DNA from: a virus
Virus record (IMG/VR): IMGVR_UViG_3300046694_000299
Span: 1 to 64,000 of that record
Reading direction: 5' to 3' (one strand)
DNA: 64,000 nucleotides
Part shown: positions 37,490-58,100 of the stretch, piece after piece
How the letters are laid out: each line of letters starts with the position of its first letter
Position numbering within the stretch: position 1 is the stretch's first letter
Notes under the pieces: generated by a model
Databases searched by the model: none
Told to the model about the DNA's origin: nothing
What the model saw: the letters and a program-made list of their open reading frames with translations, nothing else
Translations under genes and position numbers: made by a program

Positions 37490-38569
37490 CTATGGGGTTC
37501 CACCCCGACGCAGCCCGGCGGCCGCGTTGTCGTCCCATTCGTCGGCGAGCTGCATGTAGCCGAGCATGGCTTTGCTGCCTGGAGCCCAGCCACCCTGCTT
37601 GGCGATGTTCACCGGGTCCTTCCCGTTCTTGCGGCCCTCTGTGGCGAGCCCGGAGCGCAGCGAGTGGCCTGTCCAGCGGATCGGCACGCCGGATCGTTGG
37701 GCGACGCGGGCGACCGCGTTGGTGACGGAGTCGGGCGCCATCGCTCCGCCGATGTGCCCCCAGCGGTCGATCTGAGGGAAGGCGGCCGCCGTCAACTCGG
37801 TGCGCCCGTAGACCTCGCGCCATTGCTGCCAGGCGCGAACGGCGCAGATCTCCGGCTCGTCGATGTTGTACGGGATGGCGACGGTGCGCACGGACCGCTT
37901 CGTCTTGCCAGTGACGACGGCGACCTTGATGCCGCGGGCGTGGACGGTGATGTCGGCGAGGAGTAGGCCGGAGATCTCCGAGGCGCGGGAGGCGAAGTGG
38001 AAGCCGGTCAGGATCAGGGAGAGGTCGCGTCGGCCGGTGGGGCTGTCGTCACAGGCGGCTGCGATGCGGTGCAGGCTGTCGAGGTCGGCGGCCGCGGCCT
38101 TCCCGCGGCCGCGTCGCTCTCCGGCCTTGGCCAGCTGGGTGGCGATGCCTTCCAGCCGGGCGCGTGCTTCGGAGTGGGCGTCCTTGGTTACGGGGCGGCC
38201 GCGCTCGCGTAGGCCGACGATGGCGGCGGTGAGGTGGGAGTGGGCGGAGGTGGGCGCGTATCCGCGGCCGCCGTCGCGGCTGGGGGTTGCGCGGCCACGG
38301 TCGAGCATCCAGGCGACGTAGGCGACGAGCGCGCCGCGGGATCCTTCCGTCTCCGGGAGGCCCTGCTCGACACAGAAGCGCTGCCACACCTTCCAGCCCT
38401 TGCTGTAGGTGTCGGTCGTGTTGGGCGGGGTGGTCGCCTCTTTGATGGCGTCGGCGAAGTCTTCGGCGGCCGCGAGCCGTTCGGCGGCCGCTTCGCCGTG
38501 ACGGGCCGCCCATGCGGTCCGGATCTCCTCCGGCACTCCTCGGCTGAGCTTTTCTACGGACCCGTCCAC
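37490..38569 (-). CDS. Tyrosine recombinase, Cre/XerD-like (GTG start)
   Basis: N-terminal core-binding-type domain (NTTDTYSKGWKVWQRFC). Catalytic FHFASRASE...GHSLRSGLATE...LGYM. AAGGAGAG RBS upstream. Confidence 0.75.
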   Translation of the reverse strand: MDGSVEKLSRGVPEEIRTAWAARHGEAAAERLAAAEDFADAIKEATTPPNTTDTYSKGWKVWQRFCVEQGLPETEGSRGALVAYVAWMLDRGRATPSRDGGRGYAPTSAHSHLTAAIVGLRERGRPVTKDAHSEARARLEGIATQLAKAGERRGRGKAAAADLDSLHRIAAACDDSPTGRRDLSLILTGFHFASRASEISGLLLADITVHARGIKVAVVTGKTKRSVRTVAIPYNIDEPEICAVRAWQQWREVYGRTELTAAAFPQIDRWGHIGGAMAPDSVTNAVARVAQRSGVPIRWTGHSLRSGLATEGRKNGKDPVNIAKQGGWAPGSKAMLGYMQLADEWDDNAAAGLRRGGTP

Positions 38570-38669
38570 ATCTCTCCTTGATGCCGCGTCAATACCCTTT
38601 TGTCGCACGGGATATGAAGAGTGTATCCGGGGTGAGGTCAGCTGGGATGGGCTTCCGGACAAGAAGAAG

Positions 38670-38691
38670 CGCCCCTCCCGGAGGAGGGGCG
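38670..38691 (-). terminator. Intrinsic terminator after the lysis cassette
   Basis: CGCCCCTCC, loop CGGA, GGAGGGGCG, with a T-rich tail on the minus strand. Confidence 0.65.
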
Positions 38692-38796
38692 TCGTCACTC
38701 GGTCTCGTCATCGACCACGGGCCAGGGTGGCGGTTCGAGGAACGGCCACGGCGACAGCCAGAACGGCGGCGGGTCTTCATCGTCCATGCGGTCCCC

Positions 38797-39492
38797 TCAC
38801 AGCTTCCGGTATCTGGCGGTCATGGTGAGCAGCGCCGCACCAAGGAGGCCGCGGCCCTGGGGTGTGGGCGTACTGCTGCCCGAGCTGGTCGTGCGGCAGG
38901 TGTAGTGGGTGGACCCGTCGCCGTCGGGTGTGCACTCGTAGGTGGTGCCGGTCCCGTCGGTGTACGTCCAGCCGGACGGTGCCGGGCCGGTGGCGCCGCG
39001 GTCGCCCTGCGGCCCCTGCTCGCCCTGGGGTCCGGCAACTCCGGGGTCGCCCTGAACGCCCTGAGGGCCTTGGGGTCCGGCGATGCCGTTGGAGCCGGCC
39101 GAGCCAGGCGCCCCGGACACTCCAGGCGACGGCGTGATCGTGGGCGCAGCCTTGCCGGTGTCGCCCTTGTCGCCCTTCGGGCCGGGCGGTCCGGGGATAG
39201 GCACGGGAACTTCGGCACGGTCGGGCAAGTTTCTGACGGCCTTGGTCGGGTCCGGAGCCACCGGGGTGCCGCCCTTCGCCTTGACCTGCTCCCTCAGGGC
39301 CCGCACGTCCCCGGCGAGCGTGCTGACTGCGTTGCCGCGGAGGTCGGCTTCGGTGGCGAGCTGGTCGGCGCGGGTCGCTTCGGTCTGGACGCGCACATAG
39401 ACCAGGAGCACCGCGCCCGTCAGAGCGAGCAAGGCGGCGACTATCCACAGTAGGTGGCGGCGGCGAGCGAACGCCCGCTCGGCCCGGGTCAC
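38797..39492 (-). CDS. Membrane-anchored collagen-like (Gly-X-Y) repeat protein
   Basis: TM helix [20 protein letters not shown], coiled coil, then [13 protein letters not shown]...[43 protein letters not shown]. Hydrophobic C-terminus. Confidence 0.7.
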
Positions 39493-41328: not shown

Positions 41329-42147
41329 TCACTGCCCCTTCGTGGTGGGGACGTGGTTGTCGTGCGCCCACGCATTCACCAGACCCACGACCTCAACCAG
41401 TCGAGGATCAATCGCAGAAGGCGTGGGCGCCGGAGGAGGGGCGGGTGCGGTGACCCAGGCGGGAACGGTGACGTCGCCCTGCTGGGAGAGAAGCCACTGG
41501 ACGTCGGCCTGGGTGAGCCAGGCCGATCCGCGGACTCCCCAGGAGTCGCCCCACGAGTTGTCGATACGGAACGCCTGCCGGGTGGCGTCGTAGGCGGAGA
41601 GTACGTACTCGTGGCCGCCGGCTACCTGGCTGCTGCGGTCGACCTGCACGAACCCGGTCTTCGGGTCGGGGTCGAACATCGACTCCAGCCAGACCGTGCC
41701 GACCATCACCGGGCCGGTCTGGAGTGCGGACTTGAGGGCGGCGAGGCTGAACGCGTGCGTGTAGGACGCGGCAAGCCCGAGCTTCTTCAGGGCTTTTGCC
41801 GCGCCGATGCCGCTGGAGCCGGTGTCGTCGGGCGGGTAGACGCCCTTGATGCTGTCGAGCTGCGTGGCCAACTCGTACACCTTGACGGCGAGGTCTTCGT
41901 CGACGGGCATCACACTGTCGCCGATCGCCGCCGAGGTCAGCCCGGTGCGGGCCGCACTGTCGGTGCCGAGGAGTCCGGCCGCCGCGTTTCCGGTGCAGCT
42001 GCCGAGTTGGCCTTGGTCGAAGATCGGGGCCCGGCGGCTCCAGTCGACCGACTTGACGGCGGTCTTCGGCAGGACGCCGTGCGCGTAGTCGAGGGACCGG
42101 GGGTCGTGTTCGACGTGGCGGCCTAGGCGTCTGTGCTGTGTGGCCAT
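41329..42147 (-). CDS. Papain-like (C1-type) cysteine peptidase, lysin component
   Basis: [11 protein letters not shown] (Cys), GGHEYVL (His), NSWGDSWG (Asn/Trp). Confidence 0.65.
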
Positions 42148-42340
42148 GCGGGTTCCCCTCACGACGGGCCTTTACCTTGGAATCGTAGCCCCAACCCCGT
42201 TAATCACCTACGAATCACAGGTAAGCTGTGCGTAGGTTCTTTGCTCAGAGGGCCTGGGGCAGGGGTGTCGCCTGTGCGGGTGCGCACCCCTGCCGCTCAA
42301 ATCCCGCGCCAACCCGCACACGCACCCGCACAGGAGCGTC

Positions 42341-42448
42341 ATGACCGCTATCACCGCAGCGCTGTCCCTGCTGTTCGCCTTCGTCGTATTGGCGCAGCCG
42401 GTCGAGATGCACATCGACTACACGCCCGCCGTCCGGAGTTCGCGATGA
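42341..42448 (+). CDS. 35-aa hydrophobic micro-protein
   Basis: MTAITAALSLLFAFVVLAQPVEMHIDYTPAVRSSR. AGGAG RBS. ATGA overlap. Confidence 0.35.
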   Translation: MTAITAALSLLFAFVVLAQPVEMHIDYTPAVRSSR

Positions 42449-42771
42449 CCGCCCCGTGCCCGCGCCCGGAGTGCGGCGGCGAAGTCCACACCGACGGCTG
42501 GGGCACGCCGATCCAGTGCCCGCACGAGGCGTCAGCGCTGACCATCTCCGATCCGGGGCAGACGTTCCAACTCGTCGAGCCGCCCCGGACCATCGCCATC
42601 CTCGGCGAGGATGGCCGGACGCCGCTGGTCACGATCCATTCGTCCGGCGAGCTGGAGTACGGGCCCGGTTACACGCCCGACGAGGCCGCACGCCGCTTCT
42701 GGGACGCCATGCGCCGCATCATGCCCGCGCGCTGCCCAGCCTGCGGCCACATCGGACTGGAGACGCCGTGA
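42445..42771 (+). CDS. Cys-containing hypothetical protein
   Basis: MTAPCPRPECGGEVH...RCPACGH. Confidence 0.5.
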   Translation: MTAPCPRPECGGEVHTDGWGTPIQCPHEASALTISDPGQTFQLVEPPRTIAILGEDGRTPLVTIHSSGELEYGPGYTPDEAARRFWDAMRRIMPARCPACGHIGLETP

Positions 42772-43235
42772 TCTCCAACCTCGTTCTGTCCATCCTTTTC
42801 GTCCTGGTGACCATCGCGGGTATCGCGAACAGCATCGCCGCCAGCCGTTACGCCCGAGAGGCCAAGGCCGCCGCAGAAAGATCGGCCGCCGCCGCGCGCC
42901 GCGCCGAGGCTGCCCGCTCCCGGGGCGACGCTGCGCGCGAAGTTGCAGCGAAACTCGGCGAGGAACAGCAGCAGTCGGAGCCGGGGCATCTCACCTACGA
43001 GCAGCTCCTACCTCTCGCCGCTGCCATCCGGCGACGCGAGACCACCGGGCACGGCTTCCTCCTGCCGCCATGGCCATCCTGCCTCACCTGCGGGCAGACG
43101 CCGACCGACCTCCTCGTCCGCAACGATCACCCGGCGCACTTCCTCGAAGACCGCATCGCGTTCGGCTTCCGGCCCTGCGGCCACAACTTCACCGCCGACG
43201 CCCGCGACCTGTACCGCGCAACGGAGCAGCCGTGA
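42768..43235 (+). CDS. N-terminally anchored membrane protein (GTG start)
   Basis: VISNLVLSILFVLVTIAGIANSIAA... Confidence 0.5.
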   Translation: MISNLVLSILFVLVTIAGIANSIAASRYAREAKAAAERSAAAARRAEAARSRGDAAREVAAKLGEEQQQSEPGHLTYEQLLPLAAAIRRRETTGHGFLLPPWPSCLTCGQTPTDLLVRNDHPAHFLEDRIAFGFRPCGHNFTADARDLYRATEQP

Positions 43236-43516
43236 ACACTGCCATCGCCATCACCGCGATCATCGCCGCCGTCGTCCTCGCGAACTCCATCGTGATCGCC
43301 GTCCGCGACGTCGCGAAGGCCAAGCACCAGGCGGCGGACGGTCCAGCCGAGGTGGCCATCGCTCGCGTTCGCGCAGTATGCGACCAGTTGCACCGCGCGT
43401 CCGTCCTCGCTGACGGACAGCCGCACACCGACCGCGAACGCGGCGTCATTCAGGCAGTCAGCCGCGTCGTCGCGGCCCTCGACGGCGACACCAACAGCAA
43501 GGAGAGCAACGGATGA
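43232..43516 (+). CDS. N-terminally anchored membrane protein (GTG start)
   Basis: VNTAIAITAIIAAVVLANSIVIAV... Confidence 0.5.
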   Translation: MNTAIAITAIIAAVVLANSIVIAVRDVAKAKHQAADGPAEVAIARVRAVCDQLHRASVLADGQPHTDRERGVIQAVSRVVAALDGDTNSKESNG

Positions 43517-44466
43517 GCGTCTACGGAGTCAGCGGAGGGCAGGGCTTCATCGGCTCCTACGTGCGCAGGGAGCTCCTCGCGCGCGGCCACGAGGTCGTCG
43601 TCTTCGACCGCCACCCCCACACCGAGATGGCGTCCGGCGAGACCTTCTTCCTCGGCGACATCCGCGACGAGACGTCCGTGGTGGAACTCGCCGCGCACGT
43701 CGAGGGGATCATCCACCTTGCCGCCGTGCTGGGCACGCAGGAGACGATCGGAAACCCGAGGCCGTCCGCCGACACCAACATCCGGGGCAGCCTCAACGTG
43801 TTCGAGGCGGCCAACCAGTACGGGCTCCCCGCCGTCTACGCGGGCGTAGGGAACGCGTTTATGCGCGACCTCGGCACCGGCTCGTACACGATCAGCAAGA
43901 CGTGCGCCGAGGACTACGCGCGGATGTTCAACGCCTACCGGGGCGGCAAGGTCACCATCGTCCGCCCCGTCAACGCCTACGGGCCTGGTCAGTCGATCGC
44001 AGCCCCCTACGGAACGAGCCGAGTGAGGAAGATCCTCCCGGCCCTGACCTGCCGTGCCCTCACCGGCGCCCCCATCGAGGTGTACGGGGACGGCACCCAG
44101 ATCTCCGACTGCGTGTACGTCGCCGACGTCGCCCGCGCGTTCGTCACCGCGCTCGAGCACACCGCCGTCAACGGGCCCACGGAGAAGCCGGTGGAGGTCG
44201 GGCCGCTGGAGTCCCTCACCGTCAACGACATCGCGCGCCTCGTCGCCGAGGAAGCCACCCGGTACACGGGCCGCGAGCCTGTCGCGATCAAGCACCTGCC
44301 GATGCGGCCGGGCGAGGTGCCGAACGCGGTCGTGTCGTCCGACACCAGCACGCTCCAGCAGATCGGCATGACCGCCAAGGACTTCGTGCCCCTCGATGAG
44401 GGCATCCACCACACCGTCCGCTACTACGCCGAGCAGTGGCTGCCCGGATATCTGGCGGCGGCATGA
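43513..44466 (+). CDS. NAD-dependent sugar epimerase/dehydratase (extended SDR)
   Basis: GGQGFIGSY and the catalytic SYTISK (YxxxK). Confidence 0.8.
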   Translation: MSVYGVSGGQGFIGSYVRRELLARGHEVVVFDRHPHTEMASGETFFLGDIRDETSVVELAAHVEGIIHLAAVLGTQETIGNPRPSADTNIRGSLNVFEAANQYGLPAVYAGVGNAFMRDLGTGSYTISKTCAEDYARMFNAYRGGKVTIVRPVNAYGPGQSIAAPYGTSRVRKILPALTCRALTGAPIEVYGDGTQISDCVYVADVARAFVTALEHTAVNGPTEKPVEVGPLESLTVNDIARLVAEEATRYTGREPVAIKHLPMRPGEVPNAVVSSDTSTLQQIGMTAKDFVPLDEGIHHTVRYYAEQWLPGYLAAA

Positions 44467-44963
44467 GGCGACTCGACGTCGACGGGCACACGATCCTCAT
44501 CGACAGCGAAGATGTACCGCTCATCAGCGGCTTTCATTGGCGAGTCGTCGCGACCAATCCAACTTGCCCCGACAACCTGTACGCCGTGACTTGCCGAAGG
44601 CGGCTGTACGTCTACATGCATCGCCTCATAGCTGGGGCGGGCCCCAGCGAAGAAGTTGACCACGCCAACGGCAACGGCCTCGACAACCGCAAGAACAACC
44701 TTCGCATCGCTACGGATTCTCAGAACCAAGCGAACAAGGGAAAGATCAGAGTCAAAGGAAAGCGAGGCACCTCCCAGTACAAGGGCGTGTTCTGGGATAA
44801 AGCAAGGAGCGCTTGGGCGACGTCGATCACCGTCAACAAGCGCACGCGCCACCTCGGCCGATTCAGCACGGAAGAGGAGGCCGCTCGCGCCTATGATCGC
44901 GCCGCTATCGCAGCCTGGGGCGAGTTCGCGCGGCTGAACTTCGAAGAAGGAGTCGCCGCGTGA
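44463..44963 (+). CDS. HNH endonuclease with an AP2 DNA-binding domain
   Basis: VDHANGNGLDNRKNNLR, then YKGVFWDK...WATSITVNKRTRHLGRFSTEEEAARAYD. GC is locally lower. Confidence 0.75.
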   Translation: MRRLDVDGHTILIDSEDVPLISGFHWRVVATNPTCPDNLYAVTCRRRLYVYMHRLIAGAGPSEEVDHANGNGLDNRKNNLRIATDSQNQANKGKIRVKGKRGTSQYKGVFWDKARSAWATSITVNKRTRHLGRFSTEEEAARAYDRAAIAAWGEFARLNFEEGVAA

Positions 44964-45970
44964 GGGTGCACTTCTGGTCGGCTGACGAGGCGGGGTCATC
45001 ACTTTATAGAGCGATCCTGCCCGGTATGAGCCTGCAATGGCTTGGGCACGCCGTGTCCGCCGGGATGCGGCTCCCGAAGGACTGGCCCGCCCTGGATGTG
45101 GTCGTCGGCTGCCGGGTTGCCAAGCCTGAGCCGACCATGATGTGGCAGCGATTGAAGGACGAGGGGAAACGCCTCGTCCTCGACCTCGACGACGACTACT
45201 TCCACCTCGACCCCGTCAACCTGGCCGCCGTCCGCACCTGGGACAAGGCGATGCTGCAACGCCTCGCCGACAACATGGCGCTCGCCGACCTCGTCACCTG
45301 CTGCTCCGAGCCCCTCGCCGCCGTGCTGCGGGACTACGCGGCCGACGTCCGGGTCGTCCCCAACGGCCTGCCGGCGCAGTACCTGGGCACGCCCCGCGAC
45401 TACGAGGCGAAGGACCGTCCACTGTCCGTCGGCTGGGCCGGCACGTCGTCCACGGTCGCCGAGCTGCCCGAGGCCGTCCGTGCCCTGAACCGGATCTCGC
45501 AGTACCCGCGATCCGGCGGCGTCCAGGTCCGGATCGTCGGCATCGCTCCCGAGCACGCCATGGCGCTCGGTCTCCGCGGCCGGCAGATCGGGGCTTTGGG
45601 TTGGGTGGAGCGGCACGAGCACTACATGCAGGCGGTCGGCGAGTGGGACGTGTGGGTGGCGCCGTACCGGGACATCCCGTTCAACCGGGCGAAGTATCCG
45701 ACGAAGTGGCTGGAGTCATCGATGCTCGGCATCCCGCTGATCGCATCGGACATCGAGCCGTACCGCCGGGTGATCCGGCATGGGGAGAACGGGTTCCTCG
45801 TCAAGCACGAGCACCAGTGGGGGAAGTACCTCAAGCTCCTCGTCGATAATCCCGGGCTGCGGCAGCAGATCGGGATGACGGCCCGAGGCGAGGCGTCTGG
45901 GTCGATCCTCCAGGCCATCAACGTTCAGTGGCAGGACGCGCTTACGGCCCCGGCGGGGGTGGCGGCATGA
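44960..45970 (+). CDS. GT-B fold glycosyltransferase (GT1/GT4-like; GTG start)
   Basis: C-terminus KWLESSMLGIPLIASDIEPYRRVIRHGENGFLV. Confidence 0.7.
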   Translation: MRVHFWSADEAGSSLYRAILPGMSLQWLGHAVSAGMRLPKDWPALDVVVGCRVAKPEPTMMWQRLKDEGKRLVLDLDDDYFHLDPVNLAAVRTWDKAMLQRLADNMALADLVTCCSEPLAAVLRDYAADVRVVPNGLPAQYLGTPRDYEAKDRPLSVGWAGTSSTVAELPEAVRALNRISQYPRSGGVQVRIVGIAPEHAMALGLRGRQIGALGWVERHEHYMQAVGEWDVWVAPYRDIPFNRAKYPTKWLESSMLGIPLIASDIEPYRRVIRHGENGFLVKHEHQWGKYLKLLVDNPGLRQQIGMTARGEASGSILQAINVQWQDALTAPAGVAA

Positions 45971-46830
45971 GGGTCCTTGTCACCGGCTCGGAAGGCTTCA
46001 TCGGACGCCATGCCGCCCGCCGTCTGCATGAACGCGGTCACCACGTCACCGCCGTGGACAAGCGCAACCAGCTGTCCACCGCCGATCTGCCCACCTTGCA
46101 ACGGATCGTCGATGCCACGGAACCCGAGGTCATCGTTCACCTCGGCGCATCCTGCTCCACGAGCGTCAGCCTCCGCGACCCCGCCTCCGACTTCACCGAC
46201 AACGCGGTCGGTACCTTCAATGTCGCGGAGGCCGCGCGCCGAGCTGGCGGTATCCCGGTGCTGTTCACGTCCAGCGTGAAGGTGCACCCCGGCGCCGACG
46301 GGCTCATCGCCCCGCTCGGGCAGTCCAAGCTGGTCGGCGAGCAGTACCTGCGCCTGTACGGCGACCTGTACGGGCTGCCGCACGTCATCCTCCGCCCGTC
46401 CACCGTGTACGGCCCAGGCCAGGATGGGACGGCCGAAGCGGGCTGGGTGACGTGGTTCCTGCGCGCCTTCTGGGGGCGAAAGCAGATCACCGTCCACGGC
46501 GACGGCACCCAGAGCAGGGACGTCCTCTATATCGAGGACTTCGCGCGCCTCCTCGTCGACATCGTGGAGAATTTCGACGCCTACCAAGGTCGCACCTACG
46601 ACGTCGGAGGCGGCTCCGACAACGAACTCAGCCTCCTCGATCTCCTCCGCGCCTGGGAGACAAACGCCGGCGTCCGTCCCGACGTCGTCCGTGACGAGCG
46701 CCTCCCCGGCGACTTGCAGCGCGTCGTCACCGACAACGAGGCCATCAGCGGCGTGCGCGGCTGGAAGCCCACCACGTCCTGGATCGACGGCGTCCGGTCC
46801 ACCCTCGATTGGATCGGAGAGCAGTGGTGA
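45967..46830 (+). CDS. SDR epimerase/dehydratase-like protein lacking the catalytic Tyr
   Basis: VTGSEGFIGRH, but PLGQSK at the position where PYxxSK is expected. Confidence 0.7.
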   Translation: MRVLVTGSEGFIGRHAARRLHERGHHVTAVDKRNQLSTADLPTLQRIVDATEPEVIVHLGASCSTSVSLRDPASDFTDNAVGTFNVAEAARRAGGIPVLFTSSVKVHPGADGLIAPLGQSKLVGEQYLRLYGDLYGLPHVILRPSTVYGPGQDGTAEAGWVTWFLRAFWGRKQITVHGDGTQSRDVLYIEDFARLLVDIVENFDAYQGRTYDVGGGSDNELSLLDLLRAWETNAGVRPDVVRDERLPGDLQRVVTDNEAISGVRGWKPTTSWIDGVRSTLDWIGEQW

Positions 46831-47582
46831 AGGTCGGCGTCATCATCCCCGTGCGGAATGCGCGGCCGTGGATTGAGGAGATGCTCGCCTCGGTTCAGGC
46901 TCAGACGCACCCGGCGCACGCCTATCTGGCCGAGGACTGGTCGGACGACGGTACCCACGAGTTTCTCCTCGACCGGCCCGAGCTGTGGCGCGGTCTCGAG
47001 CGCAACCCGGTGCGGTCGGGGTGGGCTGGCGGCCTCAACGCCGCGGCAAGTCTGGCGTTTGCCGACGGCTGCGACGCCGTGTTCACGGCCTCCGCGGACG
47101 ACCGTATGCATCCCGACTGCATTGCCCGCTGCGTCGCAGTCTTGGAGGCGGGCGGTCTGGACTTCGTCGTCCCCTATGCGCAGCAGTTCGGCGGGGCGGC
47201 CGCGGTGCAGGCGTCGTTGCCGGATGCGACGCTCGAGGACTTTGCGGTGTGGCCGCCGCTGATCGACAAGGGTCTGTTCCCGCGGAAGACGTGGGAGACG
47301 GTGGGCGGGTACTCCCTTGAGGCTTCCCTGCCCAGGAGCTACGGCTGTGCGGAGGACTGGGAGTTCTGGATCCGCGTCTGGAAGGTCGGACTCGGCCGGT
47401 ACGCGGTGCTCGAGCAACCCCTGTATTTCGTGCGCGTCCACCCCGGCCAGCTGTCCAACACGCGCGGCGACGCCCATGCGGCCACGGTCGCCCTGTTCCG
47501 CCGGCTGCACCCCGACCTGCCATGGACCGCCGAGTCCGGCGTCTGGCCGCCACGACACCGCACGACGAGGAGAACCGCATGA
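46827..47582 (+). CDS. GT2-family (GT-A) glycosyltransferase (GTG start)
   Basis: VGVIIPVRNARPWIEEMLASV and FTASADDRMHPD. Confidence 0.75.
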   Translation: MKVGVIIPVRNARPWIEEMLASVQAQTHPAHAYLAEDWSDDGTHEFLLDRPELWRGLERNPVRSGWAGGLNAAASLAFADGCDAVFTASADDRMHPDCIARCVAVLEAGGLDFVVPYAQQFGGAAAVQASLPDATLEDFAVWPPLIDKGLFPRKTWETVGGYSLEASLPRSYGCAEDWEFWIRVWKVGLGRYAVLEQPLYFVRVHPGQLSNTRGDAHAATVALFRRLHPDLPWTAESGVWPPRHRTTRRTA

Positions 47583-48442
47583 TCGACGGCAAGCGCGTCA
47601 TTGCCTGGTCGCCCTACGGTCGGCGCCGCACCTACAGCATCCTGATCAAGTACCTGCAGCGGGACGTCGCCCGGGGCCTGGTCGATGAGGTGTGGGCGTT
47701 CATGAACACCGACCCGACCGGCCAGGAAGACGACATCGCCTACGCCCACGAACTCGCCGAGGCGTTCCCCTGGTTCAAGCTCAAGCACCGACCCGAGGGC
47801 GTCGACCTGGGCCCGCTGCCAAAACAGAGGTATACGGGCTTGGCCTATCGGGAGATGACGGACCCCGACACCATCTACCTGCGGCTCGATGATGACGTGG
47901 TCTACATCCACGAGGATGCGATTGAGAACCTTGTGCGCGCCCGCATAGATATGCCTGCGCCGACCGCCGTGTTCCCGATCATCATCAACAACGCGATCTG
48001 CTCCCACTTCCTGCAGCTGTGCGGGAAGGTCCCGATGGAGTGGGGAGCCGTCAACGCGTACTGCATGGACCCGGTCGGCTGGGCCAACGGGCCGTTCGCC
48101 GTCAAGCTCCACGAGATGCTGCTCGAGAAGATCGAGCAGGGCGACGTCGAGTCGCTCTACCTCTACCAGGACTTCCCGCTCCAGCCCGGCACCCAGTTCT
48201 CGGTGTCCTGCTTCGCCTCCCGCGGCGAGGACTATGCCGCGCTCCCCCAGCCCGGCGTCCTCGTCCCCGATGAGGAGGAGAGCTGGCACACGATCCACCA
48301 GCCGGTAGCCAAGGGCGTTCCCAACATCCTCCGCGGCAACGCCCTGGTCAGCCACTGGTCGTTCTTCCCTCAGCATCCGTTCCTCAACGCGACCGATCTC
48401 CTCGACCGGTACCGCGAACTCGCAGACAAGGTGGTGGCCTGA
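47579..48442 (+). CDS. Unknown protein with a DxD-like motif (possible third glycosyltransferase)
   Basis: IYLRLDDDVVYIHEDAIENL. Coupled within the sugar operon. Confidence 0.5.
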   Translation: MIDGKRVIAWSPYGRRRTYSILIKYLQRDVARGLVDEVWAFMNTDPTGQEDDIAYAHELAEAFPWFKLKHRPEGVDLGPLPKQRYTGLAYREMTDPDTIYLRLDDDVVYIHEDAIENLVRARIDMPAPTAVFPIIINNAICSHFLQLCGKVPMEWGAVNAYCMDPVGWANGPFAVKLHEMLLEKIEQGDVESLYLYQDFPLQPGTQFSVSCFASRGEDYAALPQPGVLVPDEEESWHTIHQPVAKGVPNILRGNALVSHWSFFPQHPFLNATDLLDRYRELADKVVA

Positions 48443-48672
48443 TGGGCACGCAGATCAGCGTCGAGGACGCCTTCCCCGTCTACCAGAAGCGGTGTGGTGA
48501 ACTCTTCGACGAGAATCTCCTCCTGCGTGCGCAGGTCGGGGCGCTGGAGCGGCAGCTCACGGCCGCGCGGGAGGAGGCCGAGCGCCTCCAGCAGGAGGCC
48601 TGCGAGCCTGCGCCCGTGGCCGGCGGCCCGGATCTGGCCGCGCAGCCGCCGTACCCGGAGGATGAGCGCTAG
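48442..48672 (+). CDS. Small coiled-coil protein
   Basis: 76-aa ORF. ATGA-type overlap. Confidence 0.45.
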   Translation: MGTQISVEDAFPVYQKRCGELFDENLLLRAQVGALERQLTAAREEAERLQQEACEPAPVAGGPDLAAQPPYPEDER

Positions 48673-48749
48673 GGTCGCCGCCAGCCGAGGAGCGCCCCGA
48701 TGGCGATGATGCCGACCTCGATGAGCAGGATGACCTCGAACGTTGTCAT
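48669..48749 (-). CDS. 26-aa single-TM micro-protein
   Basis: MTTFEVILLIEVGIIAIGALLGWRRP. GAGGAAG RBS. Confidence 0.25.
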   Translation of the reverse strand: MTTFEVILLIEVGIIAIGALLGWRRP

Positions 48750-48775
48750 GTGACTTCCTCTCTAGATGCCGCTGT

Positions 48776-49006
48776 TCACTGCTGGACGAGTTCGGTCTCG
48801 GCTTCGGTGTACCGGTGTACGTTCACCGAGTCCACGCCGTTGCGGGCTCGGAAGAAAGCGGCGAGGTCGTCGACCAGGCCGTAGGTTTCCATGACGTCCT
48901 GCGCCGAGCCGCCTTCGAGGTCGGAAGCGTCGCCACTGGGGGTGACGTCCAGCGAGTATCCGTATGAGCCCTTGACGATGTTGAACAGGTAGCGGGGGTA
49001 GGCCAT
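48776..49006 (-). CDS. Hypothetical virion-module protein
   Basis: 76-aa ORF. Confidence 0.5.
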   Translation of the reverse strand: MAYPRYLFNIVKGSYGYSLDVTPSGDASDLEGGSAQDVMETYGLVDDLAAFFRARNGVDSVNVHRYTEAETELVQQ

Positions 49007-49027
49007 GAGTGCTGTGCCCTTTCGGGA

Positions 49028-49966
49028 TTAGGCGACGCGTTCGGCGGTGAAGCCCCGGCACGTCAGAGTGTTGGATGCCGATGCGGTGCCCCATGTGGCG
49101 GTGATGACGAAGTCCTGCGCGACGGTGGTGTCGACCGTCACCGCGGAGGTGCCGTCCAGGATCATGCCGGGCGCCACGAATGGGGGTCCGGCGGCGAGGG
49201 TTATCGATTCGATGGTGACCTGGCTGGCGAACCACGTTCCGGCCGCGCCGGTGGTCAGGCATGTCAGGTCGGCGGTGACCTGCCAGGCGCGGTTGGTAAC
49301 GCCGGATGAGGCGGTTCGGCCGGTGCTGGATCCCAGGGCGGTTCCGGCTACCCCGCCGAGGCGGGACCTCAGTGTCAGCGTGGGGGTGCCGGTCACGGAG
49401 GCGATTCCCCACGCTTTGATGCGGTAGACCGCTCCGACGACTGCGTCCGCGGCTGGGATCGTCATCGTTGCGATCGTTGTCTCGGTCAGGGTGTTTGCGA
49501 CGGTCGTGGATGCGGCGAGTCGGTTGCGGTAGGTGGTGGTGCCGTTGACAAGCTTCAGGTCGCCGCCGACTGTGACGTTGCCGACTGTGACGAAGGCGTC
49601 GTCGGTCTTTAGGACGTTGGCGGCGGACCGGTAGAGGTTGGTGTCGGCGCCGATGAGGAGCTGAGAACCGCTGGCGAGTTTCAGGTTGGAGCCGAACGTG
49701 CTGCTGGAGTTGGGGATCTCGACCCAGGATGCGGACGCGGGCGCGGTGCCGTTGGAGAAGTAGGTCGAGTACGCCGTGTCGGACTGCGTGATGGGCTTGC
49801 CGGGGTAGGGCGTCGCCGGGCGGGTGCTCGACGTGACGACCTGGTAGCCGACGGCCGTGTCGACCTTGTCCCAGTTCTGGCCGAGGTCTTGCGTGTAGTT
49901 GACCAGCTCGGACCCGTCCGACTTGGACTTGTACAGGGCCAGCCTGGTGGTGGACGGATCAGGCAC
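49028..49966 (-). CDS. Tail fibre / receptor-binding protein (GTG start)
   Basis: VPDPSTTRLALYKSKSDGSELVNYTQDLGQNWDKVD is a typical fibre N-terminus. The C-terminus is Ser/Thr/Gly-rich and beta-rich. Confidence 0.6.
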   Translation of the reverse strand: MPDPSTTRLALYKSKSDGSELVNYTQDLGQNWDKVDTAVGYQVVTSSTRPATPYPGKPITQSDTAYSTYFSNGTAPASASWVEIPNSSSTFGSNLKLASGSQLLIGADTNLYRSAANVLKTDDAFVTVGNVTVGGDLKLVNGTTTYRNRLAASTTVANTLTETTIATMTIPAADAVVGAVYRIKAWGIASVTGTPTLTLRSRLGGVAGTALGSSTGRTASSGVTNRAWQVTADLTCLTTGAAGTWFASQVTIESITLAAGPPFVAPGMILDGTSAVTVDTTVAQDFVITATWGTASASNTLTCRGFTAERVA

Positions 49967-50537
49967 GGGGGGCGCTCCCTTCGGCGCGGGACAGTTCACG
50001 GGCTTCGGCGTCGGTGAGTTTGCCGCGTAGTGCCCGCCGATGCAGGTCGACCTCGCGCGCTCTGGAGGCGAGCCCGGCCTTGGTGATGGCGTGTTCGGCG
50101 CGGATCTGGTCGAGGGGGTCGGGCCCCTTCGCCGGTGGCCTGACGCGCCCCTTGGTTTTCTTGGCGTGCTCGACCCGCGCGAGGTGCGCGTCCCGCGCGT
50201 GCTTGATCGTCGGCGCGTTGAACAGGTCGGTGGGCACCATCTGCCCTTTTCGGGCCATCCCATTGGAGACGAGCGCGGGCGAGAGCATGCCCTGCGCGGC
50301 TGCCGGGTCTTCGATCTCCCCGCCTGGCGAGTGGACGAACTGCTCGTGCAGCACGATGTCGAGCAGCGTCTCTACGTCGGCGGGGTCGAAGCCGTACTCT
50401 GCGGCCCGCTGCTCCAGCGTGAACTTAGGGAACACGTAGGCGTGTTTCGAGCCGTCGGGGCGGGTCATGACGACGGCCCAGCACTCGATGTGGGGGTTGG
50501 GGAAGTAGGTGTCCACTGATTCGACGATGAAGTCCAC
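49959..50537 (-). CDS. Hypothetical protein
   Basis: 192-aa ORF. Confidence 0.5.
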   Translation of the reverse strand: MDFIVESVDTYFPNPHIECWAVVMTRPDGSKHAYVFPKFTLEQRAAEYGFDPADVETLLDIVLHEQFVHSPGGEIEDPAAAQGMLSPALVSNGMARKGQMVPTDLFNAPTIKHARDAHLARVEHAKKTKGRVRPPAKGPDPLDQIRAEHAITKAGLASRAREVDLHRRALRGKLTDAEARELSRAEGSAPRA

Positions 50538-53466: not shown

Positions 53467-55128
53467 CTACCTCCGGACTCCGTAGACGGCTTCCGGCATT
53501 GCCGCAAGGTACTGGTTCCGCAGGTCGGTGGCGGCGTCTCCGGCGGCAACGGGGAGGCGCACGCGGACTTCGTCGCAAATGATCACGTCCGTGGCGGGCG
53601 GGAAGTTCGCGACCGTCGGCGAGACCGTTGCGGTAACCGCGTTGGCGGGGGCGGTGACAGTGCCGTCGTAGAAGGTATACGTGTTCGCGACGAGCGTGTT
53701 CGTGACAGTGCTGGTCGACAGATACGCGGCGGCGTTGTTGAACCAGTTGACGTTCAAGTCGACCGCTCGGGCGGTGGCGCAGCGGATCCACGCCGTGGCC
53801 CGGTAGGCAGTGCCCGCGGTGACGGCGAATCCGGCGGATTCGATCGACGGGAACTGAGCGACACCGTTCGGTGTGAACTGAGCAGCGCCGACACCGACCT
53901 TGACTGGGGTGGTGACACGTACCGCAGTGCCGCCGTTGATGGTCCAGCCGGTCAGGTTCGTCTCAAATCCGGGGTTGCTGTTAAGGGTGACGCCACCCCC
54001 GCCGGTGGATGACACGCCGAGCCAGAAGTCCATTGCGGTCGCGGTGTTCTTCTGGACGCCGCCGTTGGCCGGGGCGATGAATGTCCGTGCACTGCCGCAG
54101 GCGAAACGGTTCCCGTCGGAATCGTCGACGGTTGCCGTGAGATAGCCCTGCGCGGACGTGTCGACGAACGCCTCCGCCGTGTTGAGCTGCACCTTCAGTA
54201 GGTCGGGGGCGGTGCCGCGCTGCATGTACCCCTCGACGATGCGGGAGCCGCGGCGCAGCGTCAGGTCGAGGGTGAGGCGCCCTGGCGACAGGCCTTTGAT
54301 CAGGCGCAGGATCACCATTTCGGGGTCGTTCCGCAGCAGGGTGGCCCCGTCCCACGCCGTGACCTGGATGGTGGAGCTGGCGAAGACGGCCCATGGCTTC
54401 GTCTGGTAGGCGCCGCCCGTGTAGGTCTGGACGTCGAGGGTGCCGCCGCCGGTCGCCGACCAGGTGACGTTGATCAGCCCGTTGGTGAGAGACCAGCCGG
54501 TCGTGGCGAGGGGGACGTCAACGCCGTACACCTCCTGCCCGCCCGTCGTGGTGGCGCGGACCCGGCCGGCCAGGTAGGCGGTGGGCAGGCAGCCCCAGCG
54601 CGGGGACGTGTTGGCGGGGACGGTGCGGTAGACGGTAATGGTGCCGTCGGCGCCGGTGCGCGTCATGAGGGTGGGGTTGGTGGCGCCGGTGTAGTAGCCG
54701 TAATGGCCGATCGGCGGTGCGTGCCAGCGCTCGCCGGCGAGGGCGAAGTCGTTGAGGCGGACCGCGCCGGTGAGCCTGCTCTGCAGGTCCGTTTCGGCGT
54801 CGGATCCGACCCGGTCCAGAGAGACCTTCCAGGAACTGGTGACGGTTTCGTTGAGGTATTCGGTGTAGGTCGCCCCAGAGCTCTTCACCGTGTAGTAGCC
54901 GGAACGTTCCGGCTTGTCGGTGAAGGTCACCGGGATGACCTGGCCGGGGATCAGGGAGTTGATCCCGTCATGCCGCGCGATGACCTGCGCCCGCGTGAGG
55001 GGCGGGTACGACTCCTGGCCTTCGAGGTCGAGGCCGCGACCGTCGCCGCCGCCGGACTCGGTGGCGACGAACGTCTCGCGGAGAGGGATGCGGCCGACGG
55101 TGAGGTCACCCCAGTTGAAGAGTCCCAT
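53467..55128 (-). CDS. Minor (distal) tail protein with a C-terminal carbohydrate-binding-like domain
   Basis: Start MGLFNWGDLTV, ATGA overlap with the tape measure gene. C-terminus NPGFETNLTGWTINGG. Confidence 0.7.
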   Translation of the reverse strand: MGLFNWGDLTVGRIPLRETFVATESGGGDGRGLDLEGQESYPPLTRAQVIARHDGINSLIPGQVIPVTFTDKPERSGYYTVKSSGATYTEYLNETVTSSWKVSLDRVGSDAETDLQSRLTGAVRLNDFALAGERWHAPPIGHYGYYTGATNPTLMTRTGADGTITVYRTVPANTSPRWGCLPTAYLAGRVRATTTGGQEVYGVDVPLATTGWSLTNGLINVTWSATGGGTLDVQTYTGGAYQTKPWAVFASSTIQVTAWDGATLLRNDPEMVILRLIKGLSPGRLTLDLTLRRGSRIVEGYMQRGTAPDLLKVQLNTAEAFVDTSAQGYLTATVDDSDGNRFACGSARTFIAPANGGVQKNTATAMDFWLGVSSTGGGGVTLNSNPGFETNLTGWTINGGTAVRVTTPVKVGVGAAQFTPNGVAQFPSIESAGFAVTAGTAYRATAWIRCATARAVDLNVNWFNNAAAYLSTSTVTNTLVANTYTFYDGTVTAPANAVTATVSPTVANFPPATDVIICDEVRVRLPVAAGDAATDLRNQYLAAMPEAVYGVRR

Positions 55129-58100
55129 CAGGCGCGGCTCCTGTCGGAAAGGCGGATGGCTTCCTTCATCTCCTTGACGAGGGCGTTCGCCGCGGCCCGG
55201 CGGGATGCAGGGCTGGAGAAGTCGAAGGTGCCGCTGATGTTGATCGCCTGAATGGTGATCGGGCCGCCCGCGCTGGAGCTGGCCAGCATCGCGTCGAGCT
55301 TGGCCGTGTGGTCCGCTGACAGGACCCGCTCGGGGCGGCCGGTGGCGTTGACGGACATCGTCGCCCCGGGCTGGAGCAGGCCGCCCGAGTCGAACTTGGC
55401 GGCCGGTGCGAATCCCCAGCGGCTGGTGAACAGGCCGTCGTTGTAGCCGCGGGCGCTCTTGCCCATGTGGACGCCGCGTCCGCCGCTGGACTCGACGTTC
55501 ATGCCGCCGATGGTGCCCGCGGTGTGGCCCACGCCCGCATTCGTGATGCCGATCATGAACGGGGAGTTCAGGTTCCGCACCCACCCAGACGGGCCGCTCG
55601 ACCCGGAGAACGCGCCGGTCGCCCACCGGCGGTGCGGGCGCTCCCCGCGGATCACGGACTCAATCGCGGACATCAGACCACTGCAGTCCCAGCTGGGGTT
55701 CCCGTTGCCGGCCCACTGATAGGGCAGCCCGTTCTGGGTCTTCACCCACGACATCGCGCGCTGTACGGCCGGCCCGCCCACGGCTTTTTTGTCCTCGTTG
55801 CCGAACCAGCCGAGCATCCCGTCGACGGCCTTGTTCGTCAGGCCCCGCATGAGGTTGCCGATGCCGCTGCCGGGGATCTGGTTGATGAGCGGGCGGACAA
55901 GCGCGGAGAGGGCCTTCTGTGCGGCAGCCTTGAGCCCGCCGAGGACGAGGTCTTTCGTCCACGAGGCGGCGGAACTGACGGCGCCTCCGATGGCGCTGCC
56001 GATGGTGCCGATGATCCCACCGCCCGCGAAGTGCGGGGTGGCCTGCTGGCGCTTGCGTTCCTGCTGGCTGGTCGGGTTGCCGCCCGTCTTGGTGGGGTGG
56101 TCCTTGCCGAGCATGGCGTCGATGCCCCGATGCCCGCCGAGGGCTGCCACCTGCTGGTTGGACAGGATGCGCTCGCCAGGGGTGAGCATCGCGGGGACGG
56201 TGTCTTTGTTGCCGCTGCCGGGGACGACGCCACCGCGGTTGAAGCCGAGGCTGATCGACGGAAGCGTGATCTTTGAGCTGATCTTTCCGGCGATACTGTT
56301 CCACATTTTGCGGATGCCGTTGTTGTAGACGGTGTTCACGACGAACCGAACGGGGCTAGCGATCTTCGACTTCACGCCGTCCCAGATCGTCCCCAGGCTG
56401 TCCCGCAGCGTGGAGAACGCCGTCTTCATTGACGACTTGAACGTGTTGATCTTTCCGTTGATCGTGGAGAAGATCCCGGAGATTTTGTCGCGGGCCCCGT
56501 TCCAGAGGTTGTTCCACGTGTTCGTGATGCCGTTCTTGAGGTCGGACACGCCGTTCTTCACGGTCGTCCACGCCCCGGAGATCGCCGACCGCAGGCCACT
56601 CCAGAAGCTGTTCCACTTCGTGCGGACGCCATCCCACAGGCTGTTCCACGTGCTCACGACCCAGTTCTTCAGGTCCGTAAAGATCTTCTTCGTGCCGTTC
56701 CACAGCGACGTGAACCATCCGATGATCGCCTTGACCAGGTCCGGGATGATGCTGTGCCCGACGAGGACGTCGTACAGCCACTGGAAGCCCTTGACGATCT
56801 CCTTCAGAACCCACGCCACACCGTTGGCCAGGTTCGTCAGCCACCCGATCACCGTCGTGATCACCGGGACCAGAATGCCGATCGCGCCAGCCAGAACCCC
56901 TGCCAGCAGCTGCGCGAGACCGACAATGAGCGGCATCATTGGCATGATCGCCATTGTCGCCAGGTTCACGAACGCCACGATCAGTTGGCCGAGCGGCGGG
57001 ATCAGCGGCGTCAGCGCAGTCAGCAGCTGCGGGAAGATCGGCGCCAACTGGCCCAGGAACTGCCCGACCAACTGCACCACGGGCAACAGCGCGGCGAAGA
57101 TCGGCACAAGAGCCTTGGCGAGCATGGCGACGAACGGAACCAGCGCGTCTAGCAACGTCTTGATGAACGGTGCGATCGCCTTGACGACGGTGGCGATCAG
57201 GTTGCCGATGGGCTGCAGCAGCGGCATGACCGCCTGCACCAGGCCGACGAGAACGCCACCGACGTCCTTCACCACGGGCAGCAGCGCCGTGATGATCGGC
57301 ATCAGGGCTTTGCCCAGCGCCCCGGCGAGGTCGGCGAGGACCGGGCCGAACTTCTGGGCGAGTTCGGTGACGACGGGTGCCAGTGCCGCCAGCAGCGGCA
57401 GCGCCGCTTGGATGACCGCGCCGAGAGTTCCCGCCACCAATTTCGCGATGGAGTTGATCGCCGCAAAGATGGTCGTGAGGGCCTTCTGTACTTCCGGCAT
57501 TGCGGTGATCTTGCGGAGTTCCTTGAACACCGCGCCGATCCCGCCCAGCGCGTCACCGCCCGCAGCCCCGGCGGCCTTCAGGATGTTGCCGATGGTGCCG
57601 AAGATGTCCCCGGCCAGGTGCCCGAACTGCTTGGCGATATCGATCGCCTGGTCGATGATCTTTTCCAGGTGACCGTTCTTGAACGCCTTGTCGAGTTGCT
57701 GGGAGAACCGGTCGAAGACCCCTGCGCCCGCCGTCGTGATCCTCTTGAACGCCGGGGATGCGGCGATGGACACCTGCGCGAGGCCCTTGATGAACTGACC
57801 AGGCACCCGCGACAGCGGCTTCAGCCCGTCGTTCAGGCCGGAGAACATCTTCTTCAGCATGCCGGTCTTGCCGAGCTCGGTGACCGCGCTCGCGGCGTTC
57901 TTCGCCATGCCGTTCAGGACCGTGGCCGTGCCCGTCAGCCCGGTTGTAAGGGACGGCAGGATGGCCGACGACATCGTCGTGAACGTCTGCCCCAGCCCCG
58001 CGAACAGGGCATTCTGCACGTCGAGCTTCAGCCCGCGCCAGGCTTCACGCTGGGCGAGGACCGCGTTGACGAACGCCCGCGCATTCGGGGCGAGCTTCGC

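Follow-up and report, generated by a model that had tools for sequence, protein, structure and literature searches.

An antisense sugar-enzyme island with a covarying RNA leader, possibly serving virion glycosylation, in a family of Streptomyces prophages

The first 64,000 nucleotides of the IMG/VR virus record IMGVR_UViG_3300046694_000299, to which we refer as the window, carry a plus-strand operon of sugar-modifying genes, here called the island, which lies antisense between the minor-tail genes and the peptidase-endolysin-holin cassette of what is predicted to be a temperate Streptomyces siphovirus. The island is a phage glycosylation cassette, of a kind already known, and its new components are a leader RNA, a family of predicted GT-A glycosyltransferases represented by what we call the DxD protein, and a pair of short-chain dehydrogenase/reductase (SDR) proteins, each of them without one residue of the catalytic triad. 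Its gene content, translational coupling, conservation, protein folds, and leader structure are established here, and we infer its sugar chemistry, acceptor, and time of expression. Our preferred reading, to which we give a probability of about 0.42, is that the island glycosylates the phage's own virion proteins, with the modification of a host wall polymer in second place. An earlier note on this DNA, made from the sequence alone, had offered both options, and ours is a modest lean between them.

Third-position G+C (GC3) frame analysis, complemented with explicit junction checks, fills positions 42341-48672 with 11 plus-strand open reading frames (ORFs; Table 1), GC3 being used for gene calling because the window has a G+C content of ~69%. 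The 11 ORFs contain no internal stop codon, and their GC3 values range from 0.83 to 0.94, with the HNH gene as an outlier at 0.74. No junction is without overlap: nine out of ten are 4-nt ATGA/GTGA overlaps, just as the earlier note had described for almost every junction, and the remaining one is a 1-nt overlap. That note had counted ten genes, even though its own list comprised 11 items; its plus-strand operon stands, with the number corrected to 11. Its domain calls (two SDR proteins, HNH-AP2, GT-B, and GT2) are supported by Pfam, PHROGs, and NCBIfam, and its view of a sugar-modification operon with its own control region, placed antisense between the tail-fibre and the lysis genes, is fully upheld as far as gene content is concerned, with minus-strand genes on both flanks. 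According to hydropathy, a single hydrophobic segment is located at the N-terminus of each of ORFs 1, 3, and 4, and the enzymes have none; a single operon hence combines several soluble glycosyltransferases and sugar-tailoring enzymes, namely three of the former and two SDR proteins, with no transmembrane segment. No flippase, polyprenyl-phosphate glycosyltransferase, GT-C enzyme, or polymerase was found among the island proteins by Pfam, NCBIfam, and hydropathy. The island has no near-identical relative in 50,697 GenBank phage records, and a megablast search of the island and the structural region against the GenBank phages returned a single match, of 121 nt, within the gene of the major tail protein.

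The GT-B enzyme matches the Pfam families Glyco_trans_1_4 and Glycos_transf_1 as well as phrog_7162, and is 32% identical to gp6 of the Streptomyces phage KimJongPhill. Its AlphaFold2 (AF2) model, with a predicted local distance difference test (pLDDT) value of 75, matches retaining GT4 enzymes generally, including MshA, BshA, PglA, PimA, TarM, and SdgB. The GT2 enzyme (Pfam Glycos_transf_2, 1.2e-12) comprises 251 aa, lacks hydrophobic segments (maximum KD19 1.48), and has no homologue in the GenBank phage records; its only sequence match among solved structures is the catalytic domain of TarS (residues 1-202), with an E value of 0.007.

The third glycosyltransferase, the DxD protein, has no match in Pfam, NCBIfam, or PHROG, even though its family comprises ~955 representative clusters at 50% identity. 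Among 73 diverse homologues, R15, D52, D104-D105-D106, N137, and H259 are invariant, and elsewhere the domain is fused to GT2, GT4, GT90, methyltransferase, or tetratricopeptide repeat (TPR) domains. Its AF2 model (pLDDT 97) retrieves with Foldseek mostly GT-A enzymes as top matches, at a template-modelling (TM) score of ~0.5 (LH3/ColGalT1, hyaluronan synthase, GlfT2, and ppGalNAc-transferases), plus a few nucleotidyltransferases of related fold, and it superposes with a TM score of 0.80 on a Pithovirus protein with a macrocin-O-methyltransferase-like domain. The GT-A fold, the acidic DxD motif, and a C-terminal His are all present, and the protein is thus predicted to be a metal-dependent GT-A glycosyltransferase of an undescribed family. 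In GenBank phages its homologues are restricted to the cyanophages B3 and B23. In B23, a member of the family Kyanoviridae that we take to be a T4-like, lytic phage, the gene sits among those for GT11, GT25, and glucose-1-phosphate thymidylyltransferase.

Both SDR proteins belong to the Pfam Epimerase family PF01370 (1.4e-40 for SDR1 and 1e-42 for SDR2), carry the Rossmann GxxGxxG motif, fit the family profile, and align over their full length to GalE structures. The best solved relative of SDR1 is the UDP-glucose 4-epimerase 4ZRM, and SDR2 aligns best to UDP-glucose 4-epimerases and also to CDP-tyvelose 2-epimerase. However, the complete Ser/Thr-Tyr-Lys triad is found in neither of them. SDR1 keeps YxxxK and lacks the catalytic Ser/Thr, with AGVGN where SST is expected; this sequence is the same in all the orthologues examined except the one in L023 (IGVGN), and the Ser/Thr is missing in all of them. 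SDR2 has Leu at the position of the catalytic Tyr (PLGQSK instead of the expected PYGxSK), a change kept in 13/13 orthologues. Since these changes are conserved in the orthologues, the proteins are under selection and their chemistry is not to be assumed; SDR1 and SDR2 may be non-canonical enzymes, or may work only as a pair.

The HNH gene (Pfam PF13392 and PF00847; phrog_99 at 9e-39) is inserted precisely between SDR1 and the GT-B gene, preserving the architecture of overlapping starts and stops. Its combination of HNH_3 and AP2 domains with a sporadic presence is that of an HNH-AP2 homing endonuclease: it is found in none of 31 related loci, only in this window, and its GC3 of 0.74 contrasts with ~0.9 in its neighbours. 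The Streptomyces antibioticus locus (L230) has three unrelated small ORFs (76, 69, and 189 aa; 8978-9999) at the same junction, which would therefore appear to be an insertion hot spot.

The island is preceded by a control region of conserved architecture, the 193-nt gap between the start of the peptidase gene, most likely an ATG at 42147 with a good ribosome-binding site, and ORF 1. This gap could be aligned in 25 loci (alignment A2), and the same control region is found in 11-12 further Streptomyces genomes. It begins with two boxes whose core positions are invariant in 25/25 A2 leaders and which recur in 11 more genome copies. RNAalifold pairs the two boxes, but with 0 covarying pairs, and we regard them as a putative shared operator or bidirectional promoter core. 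No further copy of the boxes exists in the 64-kb window, the immunity region included, and an operator of the immunity repressor was rejected on the grounds that no second copy lies within the window. Readings of the boxes as PhoP, ECF-sigma, or SigB-type sites, judged by eye, were also set aside, since the required positions are not conserved. Downstream of the boxes, the T-A...T pattern of a -10-like hexamer is retained in most A2 loci; there is no recognisable -35 element upstream of it, and a scan for consensus sigma-70 promoters gave no match. Developmental control through bldA was rejected as well, since the 21 island and flanking genes checked contain no TTA codon.

The leader itself, of ~170 nt (42174-42340), comprises two covarying hairpins, P1 and P2, followed by repeated ACCCGCAC motifs. 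In an alignment of 40 sequences, P1 has compensatory changes in 5/5 pairs, with 97.8% of cells paired, and P2 in 12/13 pairs, with 98.2% of cells paired; for the whole structure, 98.3% of cells are paired and 17/20 pairs are compensated. None of 500 shuffles attains these values, and structures shifted by 1-3 columns pair only ~50%. Since this alignment was fitted to the covariance model, it is relevant that an independent MAFFT/RNAalifold run recovers the same two helices, with 13 compensated pairs. Folding of the single leader sequence is not significant (z = -1.06), and the evidence for the structure is comparative throughout. It is assigned to the plus-strand RNA because U-G pairs are abundant. 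The hairpin that the earlier note had seen upstream of the island is thus real, at 42256-42296, with a stem that covaries across 40 loci.

The loop of P2 (GUGCGGGU; family consensus motif CCGTGCGGGTC) contains the core GTGCGGGT at 42274-42281, of which ACCCGCAC is the exact complement. Leaders have 2-4 copies of ACCCGCAC, with at least two in all those listed, divergent ones included, and in the window the final copy abuts the Shine-Dalgarno sequence AGGAG (42332-42336). The P2 loop may accordingly pair with the ACCCGCAC repeats and occlude the ribosome-binding site; both sides are invariant, and because neither of them varies, this pairing lies beyond the evidence that covariation can give. 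The leader motifs occur nowhere else in the window. The covariance model finds exactly one copy in every island-bearing locus spanning the region and 0 copies in more than 40 loci with the same peptidase but no island, and Rfam 15 has no match to the leader at E <= 1 (41900-49100, both strands). A scan of the genome collection with a loose leader pattern gave 120 matches, 12 of which are true leaders, the remainder being mostly chance hits in high-GC genomes.

An island with the same position and orientation is present in more than 40 related prophages and viral contigs of Streptomyces. With the DxD protein as query, 31 IMG/VR viral contigs were found, as were hundreds of proteins, many of them in named Streptomyces genomes, and all the contigs that span the region have a plus-strand island between homologous minor-tail genes and the lysis cassette. 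Since both position and antisense orientation recur in the 31 contigs, and in more loci found through the peptidase or the leader, this arrangement is no chance feature. Hosts of the family include S. antibioticus, S. mirabilis, S. stelliscabiei, S. anulatus, and many others. None of the loci that cover the region is without SDR1, the GT-B enzyme, and the DxD protein, which show 53-93% identity across the family, whereas SDR2 and GT2 always occur together, in ~13/31 loci; a minimal four-gene core is found in L032. A peptidase-seeded search gave 75 loci, where the core island is present in 7/7 peptidase-anchored loci with a closely related tail module (L033-L035 and L038-L041), and most of the loci with only the peptidase in common have no island at that position. 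L148 and L089, which are more distantly related in their tail module, have sugar islands of other composition. In L089, the tail and lysis genes are adjacent and a different antisense sugar operon lies downstream of lysis. That operon ends with a 380-aa protein (12792-13934, minus strand) that has a signal peptide and no Pfam family, and may be a secreted glycan-active protein. In integrated copies (S. antibioticus, for example CP050692 with the island at ~7.09-7.11 Mb, and two genomes with the prophage beside uvrA) the island is located within ~7 kb of one prophage end.

The cargo behind the leader is variable. The island of L148 encodes a 32%-identical GT-B enzyme, a 2-oxoglutarate (2OG)-Fe(II) oxygenase of the prolyl-hydroxylase type, a methyltransferase, a GT2 enzyme, and a homologue of the terminal coiled-coil protein; that of L179 encodes a GT-B enzyme, a 4,6-dehydratase-like SDR protein, an RmlA-like nucleotidyltransferase, and again a prolyl-hydroxylase-type 2OG-Fe(II) oxygenase. 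In both loci the oxygenase belongs to PF13640 and is encoded next to glycosyltransferases, which hints at a hydroxylation-dependent protein glycosylation. The islands of L136 and L137 open with an Rv2179c-like exoribonuclease, L125 has zinc-ribbon proteins behind the same leader, and in two divergent uvrA-adjacent prophages, L232 (5535-5954) and L233 (5909-6271), the first island gene encodes a HATPase_c_2 kinase of the RsbW/anti-sigma type, suggesting that the 5' slot can carry host-regulatory cargo too. As cargo varies behind one leader, the locus behaves like a surface-antigen locus with a moron-like 5' slot.

In the window, this slot holds the small proteins. The 35-aa peptide is conserved at or near the island start in ~24 related loci, with 47-89% identity among the convincing matches. 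The 108-aa protein, for which Pfam, PHROG, NCBIfam, and PADLOC give no match, is shared with some relatives only (38-82% identity); the 155-aa protein, whose hydrophobic segment starts at residue 1, is patchy among relatives and matches no family, and the 94-aa protein has a homologue at the equivalent position in L179. At the other end of the island, the 76-aa coiled-coil protein is found in most relatives (40-92% identity) and is absent from L232 and L233, and a 57-aa homologue of it ends the otherwise different island of L148.

According to our preferred reading, the island would be a self-contained, translationally coupled, cytoplasmic glycosylation operon with a structured 5' leader, transcribed from its own control region, which it would share back-to-back with the lysis cassette. 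The GalE-like SDR1, plus SDR2 where present, would supply or hold a modified nucleoside diphosphate (NDP)-hexose, and the GT4-type GT-B enzyme, the GT-A-type DxD protein, and the optional GT2 enzyme would then add sugars sequentially to build a short glycan on a cytoplasmic acceptor. The presence of three glycosyltransferases and sugar-nucleotide enzymes argues for an oligosaccharide rather than a single-sugar decoration. The acceptor would be virion proteins, of the capsid and/or the tail tube, and Streptomyces phages would have an equivalent, with unrelated enzymes, of the virion glycosylation known from mycobacteriophages. A more specific version, in which the RNA leader gates the translation of interchangeable sugar cassettes and each lineage thereby places its own glycans on capsid or tail-tube proteins, we consider unlikely; if true, it would be the first virion glycosylation outside the mycobacteriophages, evolved independently of Che8.

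Two findings carry the proposal of virion glycosylation. One is the gene set itself, which is soluble, includes several glycosyltransferases, and has none of the membrane machinery known from gtr systems; the other comes from KimJongPhill. This phage and Zuko are the only Streptomyces phages in the collection with a homologue of the GT-B enzyme, which in KimJongPhill is encoded together with an SDR-like gene and a methyltransferase gene just upstream of the terminase. The entire genome of KimJongPhill is without an annotated integrase or repressor, and this phage shares with the phage of the window the capsid C-terminus (50% identity), the connectors, the tail terminator, the major tail protein (52%), the chaperone, and the tape measure (36% over 1378 aa), but neither minor tail nor fibre nor receptor-binding proteins. 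Because KimJongPhill keeps both the GT-B enzyme and the head/tube module, and not the receptor-binding proteins, the enzyme travels with that module and operates in a lytic phage. It would have stayed with it through changes of lifestyle, position, and receptor-binding proteins, as virion glycosylation predicts and masking does not. The DxD homologue within the sugar cluster of B23, the membership of giant-virus fusion proteins in the DxD family, and the lack of a copy of the box motif in the immunity region or the rest of the window are also in favour of virion glycosylation. So is the presence of the core island in all seven peptidase-anchored loci with a closely related tail module, as opposed to most loci that have just the peptidase in common. 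As for the acceptor, the major tail protein of the window (60595-61158, minus strand) is 52-55% identical to those of the Zukoviruses (L229:4060-4629) and of small Microbacterium phages (L234:14282-14821). A loop of it is longer and richer in Ser/Thr (NGGTSASAAGYASFEPSFASSATQ) in the two glycosyltransferase-bearing phages than in the Microbacterium phage OscarSo, an anecdotal and weak indication from three sequences.

Several observations weigh against virion glycosylation. OscarSo has the same capsid/tube module and neither a glycosyltransferase nor a homologue of the island, and the link to KimJongPhill consists of a single enzyme with 32% identity. Neither sequence nor profile comparison relates the island to the proven Che8 enzymes, and each SDR protein is without one residue of the catalytic triad, leaving the sugar chemistry uncertain. 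The island runs antisense to the late tail operon and converges on it without a terminator, so that transcriptional interference would be expected if both were on late in infection, and in actinophages it is usually the prophage that expresses genes oriented in this way. Its location near a prophage end, together with the hypervariable moron-like 5' slot (membrane proteins, zinc-ribbon proteins, anti-sigma-like kinase, and exoribonuclease), points the same way.

The strongest alternative, possible and yet in our judgement somewhat unlikely, is lysogenic conversion by receptor masking. Here, the operon would be expressed from the prophage, and perhaps early in infection, and its soluble GT4- and GT2-type enzymes would add sugars to a lipid-linked wall glycopolymer while this is still on the cytoplasmic side, prior to export. 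The target would be similar to a teichoic or teichulosonic acid, as for TarM, TarS, and the prophage-encoded TarP in Staphylococcus aureus, and the altered tail receptor would block superinfection and the loss of progeny on cell debris. The convergence on the tail operon from an own promoter and leader, the proximity to the prophage end in integrated copies, and the variable 5' cargo, including N-anchored membrane proteins and the HATPase_c_2 kinase, all fit this proposal. So do the glycan genes of sibling islands, which vary as surface-antigen loci do, and the restriction of the core island to this tail module. The missing box copy in the immunity region, which we have counted above in favour of virion glycosylation, is compatible with it as well, as the immunity repressor would have no obvious way to shut off the island via the boxes. 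TarS, the only solved-structure match of GT2, and TarM, among the fold matches of the GT-B enzyme, are of the expected type; however, this similarity is generic and at the level of the fold. Moreover, the GT-B lineage has followed the capsid and tube instead of the receptor-binding proteins, and has done so into a lytic phage, which cannot form lysogens to convert. Known wall-polymer decorations use one glycosyltransferase and not three plus sugar-nucleotide enzymes, the SDR2-GT2 module does not track tail-fibre similarity, and the distant relative L089 keeps a sugar operon at another position.

It is quite improbable that the island glycosylates a host protein, a lipid, or a secreted metabolite, for instance to inactivate an anti-phage antibiotic of Streptomyces, or that it is just a general moron slot whose sugar genes serve no single purpose. 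Even though the same leader drives non-sugar cargo, such as the exoribonuclease and the zinc-ribbon proteins mentioned above, the core of SDR1, GT-B, and DxD protein is kept at high identity, antibiotic-inactivating glycosyltransferases are GT1 and not GT4 or GT2 enzymes, and no model of a defence system matches. A known anti-phage defence system was rejected as a candidate for lack of a PADLOC match. Hardly credible is, finally, the glycosylation of hypermodified bases in the phage DNA: according to a preprint, phage glycosyltransferases decorating 5-hydroxymethylpyrimidines exist, but Pfam found no cytosine methyltransferase, TET/JBP dioxygenase, or hydroxymethylase among 54 other proteins of the window, which covers part of the genome, and the island enzymes are of cell-envelope or protein-glycosylation types.

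Table 1. Genes of the island and elements of its control region, with positions in the window.
Feature	Position	Strand	Remarks
Invariant box 1, CCTTGGAATCGTAGC	42175-42189		Imperfect inverted repeat with box 2
Invariant box 2, CCTACGAATCACAGG	42207-42221		Between the divergent lysis cassette and island
Putative -10-like hexamer TAAGCT (pattern TAnnnT)	42222-42227	+	Just 5' of the first leader hairpin
Hairpin P1	42234-42255	+	Short stem; loop usually with GCTCAG
Hairpin P2	42256-42296	+	Stem variable in sequence yet paired; loop conserved
C-rich leader tail	42300-42336	+	Degenerate CCCGCGCC, then ACCCGCAC at 42312-42319 and 42324-42331
ORF 1, 35-aa hydrophobic peptide	42341-42448	+	Begins MTAITAALSLLFAFVVLAQP, ends IDYTPAVRSSR
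ORF 2, 108-aa Cys-containing protein, variable cargo	42445-42771	+	Zinc-ribbon-like CxxxC...CPxC motifs
ORF 3, 155-aa protein with N-terminal membrane anchor and Cys-containing C-terminal domain, variable cargo	42768-43235	+	
ORF 4, 94-aa protein with N-terminal membrane anchor, variable cargo	43232-43516	+	
SDR1, core extended SDR, NDP-sugar 4-epimerase-like	43513-44466	+	Pfam Epimerase
HNH_3 and AP2 homing-endonuclease-like gene	44463-44963	+	Pfam, PHROG
GT-B glycosyltransferase, core, GT4 (retaining) type	44960-45970	+	Pfam, PHROG, AF2 model
SDR2, accessory extended SDR, epimerase-like	45967-46830	+	Pfam Epimerase
GT2 glycosyltransferase (GT-A fold), accessory	46827-47582	+	Pfam Glycos_transf_2
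DxD protein, core, predicted GT-A-fold glycosyltransferase	47579-48442	+	AF2 model, Foldseek, invariant residues
76-aa coiled-coil protein, terminal island gene	48442-48672	+	

The left flank carries, on the minus strand, the peptidase, an endolysin (54% identity to that of phiSASD1), a holin-like gene, a membrane-anchored collagen-repeat protein, and an integrase; beyond it lie a second integrase, the repressor, and early genes. The right flank, also on the minus strand, carries the tail fibre, the minor tail proteins, the tape measure, and the major tail protein. Because integrases, repressor, early genes, and lysis and tail genes follow each other in this layout, the genome is predicted to be that of a temperate Streptomyces siphovirus in its unintegrated gene order. 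The tail operon is closed by a 26-aa hydrophobic ORF (MTTFEVILLIEVGIIAIGALLGWRRP; 48669-48750, minus strand) with a strong ribosome-binding site, whose stop codon overlaps that of the last island gene within the palindrome CTAG; since the stops overlap in this way, the two convergent operons share zero intergenic space, with no terminator between them. Two terminator-like sites at the island ends both lie inside genes and are not above chance, and the 3' end of the island has only weak inverted repeats.

Some of the neighbouring genes deserve a comment of their own. The product of 38797-39492 (minus strand), labelled 'collagen-like minor tail' in PHROGs, has an N-terminal transmembrane helix, G-X-Y repeats, and then an S/T-rich tail, and its gene immediately follows the holin-like one; the protein resembles a membrane component of the lysis cassette and not a tail fibre. 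The two tyrosine-integrase genes, 31970-33262 (plus strand) and 37490-38698 (minus strand), are ~4 kb apart, with small genes between them. The longest tail-fibre ORF (49028-50263, minus strand) overlaps an upstream 192-aa gene (49959-50537) by ~300 nt, and comparison with L089 suggests that its real start is near 49950, around ...TTRLALYKSK... The tape measure (55128-59780, minus strand; 1550 aa) also matches the endolysin-type phrog_971 at residues ~1049-1503, which suggests an embedded peptidoglycan-hydrolase domain.

To our knowledge, phage-encoded glycosylation has been shown experimentally in few systems only: gtr, TarP, and three mycobacteriophages. In the open-access literature we found no description of glycosylation by a Streptomyces phage, in line with the earlier note, for which neither role was defined for these phages. 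Sugar-enzyme islands of fixed position and interchangeable contents are thus maintained by a large, uncultured family of Streptomyces prophages, and they offer several testable handles, namely a GT-A family of ~955 clusters, two triad-deficient SDR proteins, and a covarying leader that matches no family in Rfam. A virion target would extend phage glycosylation to the main antibiotic-producing genus; with a wall polymer as target, we would know of no earlier lysogenic conversion of a surface glycan in an actinomycete. By itself the finding overturns nothing, and it opens the way to tractable experiments.

Among the known systems, the gtrABC cassettes of Salmonella and Shigella phages, to which the earlier note had compared the island, are likewise sugar-modification modules in temperate phages. 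However, the comparison fails in every feature that defines gtr: Pfam and NCBIfam find no GtrA-type multi-pass flippase, the small proteins having one hydrophobic segment each; there is no membrane-anchored GtrB, no integral-membrane GT-C enzyme such as GtrC, and indeed no polytopic protein in the island; and the island is not adjacent to int/attP. The enzymes of giant-virus capsid glycosylation have in common with it the DxD domain, fused to a methyltransferase-like domain in the Pithovirus protein, but they belong to eukaryotic viruses and the DxD domain is known there from sequence and model alone. Chlorovirus capsid glycosylation, for comparison, relies on multidomain proteins with GT-A and methyltransferase domains. 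TarP, TarM, and TarS from S. aureus resemble the island in involving a temperate phage of a Gram-positive host and soluble GT2 or GT4 enzymes, possibly acting on lipid-linked polymers in the cytoplasm. They differ in being single enzymes that add one GlcNAc, and TarS and TarP have a C-terminal trimerisation domain that the island GT2 lacks; a specific homology is not apparent, as the match is to the TarS catalytic domain only and TarM ranks 25 or lower among the GT4 fold matches.

A further system for comparison is the gp4-gp6 cassette of the Zukoviruses (Zuko and KimJongPhill), which includes the homologous GT-B enzyme beside an SDR-like protein, in genomes with homologous capsid, connector, tail, and tape-measure genes. 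These phages are, in contrast, lytic, have a same-strand cassette upstream of the terminase with a methyltransferase and a second glycosyltransferase/methyltransferase/glycosyltransferase cluster at the right end, and possess neither the DxD protein nor a GT2 homologue nor the leader. Virion glycosylation in mycobacteriophages, as summarised in two reports, involves Che8 gp108-110, Corndog gp38, and Myrna (PMC12363180 and PMC13313380). Like the island, the Che8-type system is an actinobacteriophage cluster of several soluble glycosyltransferases and sugar-tailoring enzymes in a temperate siphovirus, with capsid and tail-tube subunits as presumed acceptors. Contrary to the island, which is antisense inside the late region and has a structured leader and SDR epimerase-like proteins, the Che8 genes lie at the genome end, in the orientation of the genes next to them, and include a fused methyltransferase. 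With Che8 gp108-110 as targets, BLASTP returned no match below E = 1 for any island protein, and in hhalign the DxD family profile reached probabilities of <1% with each of the three. Homology was rejected on these results and, as no island enzyme is detectably related to gp108-110, the island is not a member of the Che8 system. By analogy of function, mycobacteriophage virion glycosylation would nevertheless be the closest known system to the island.

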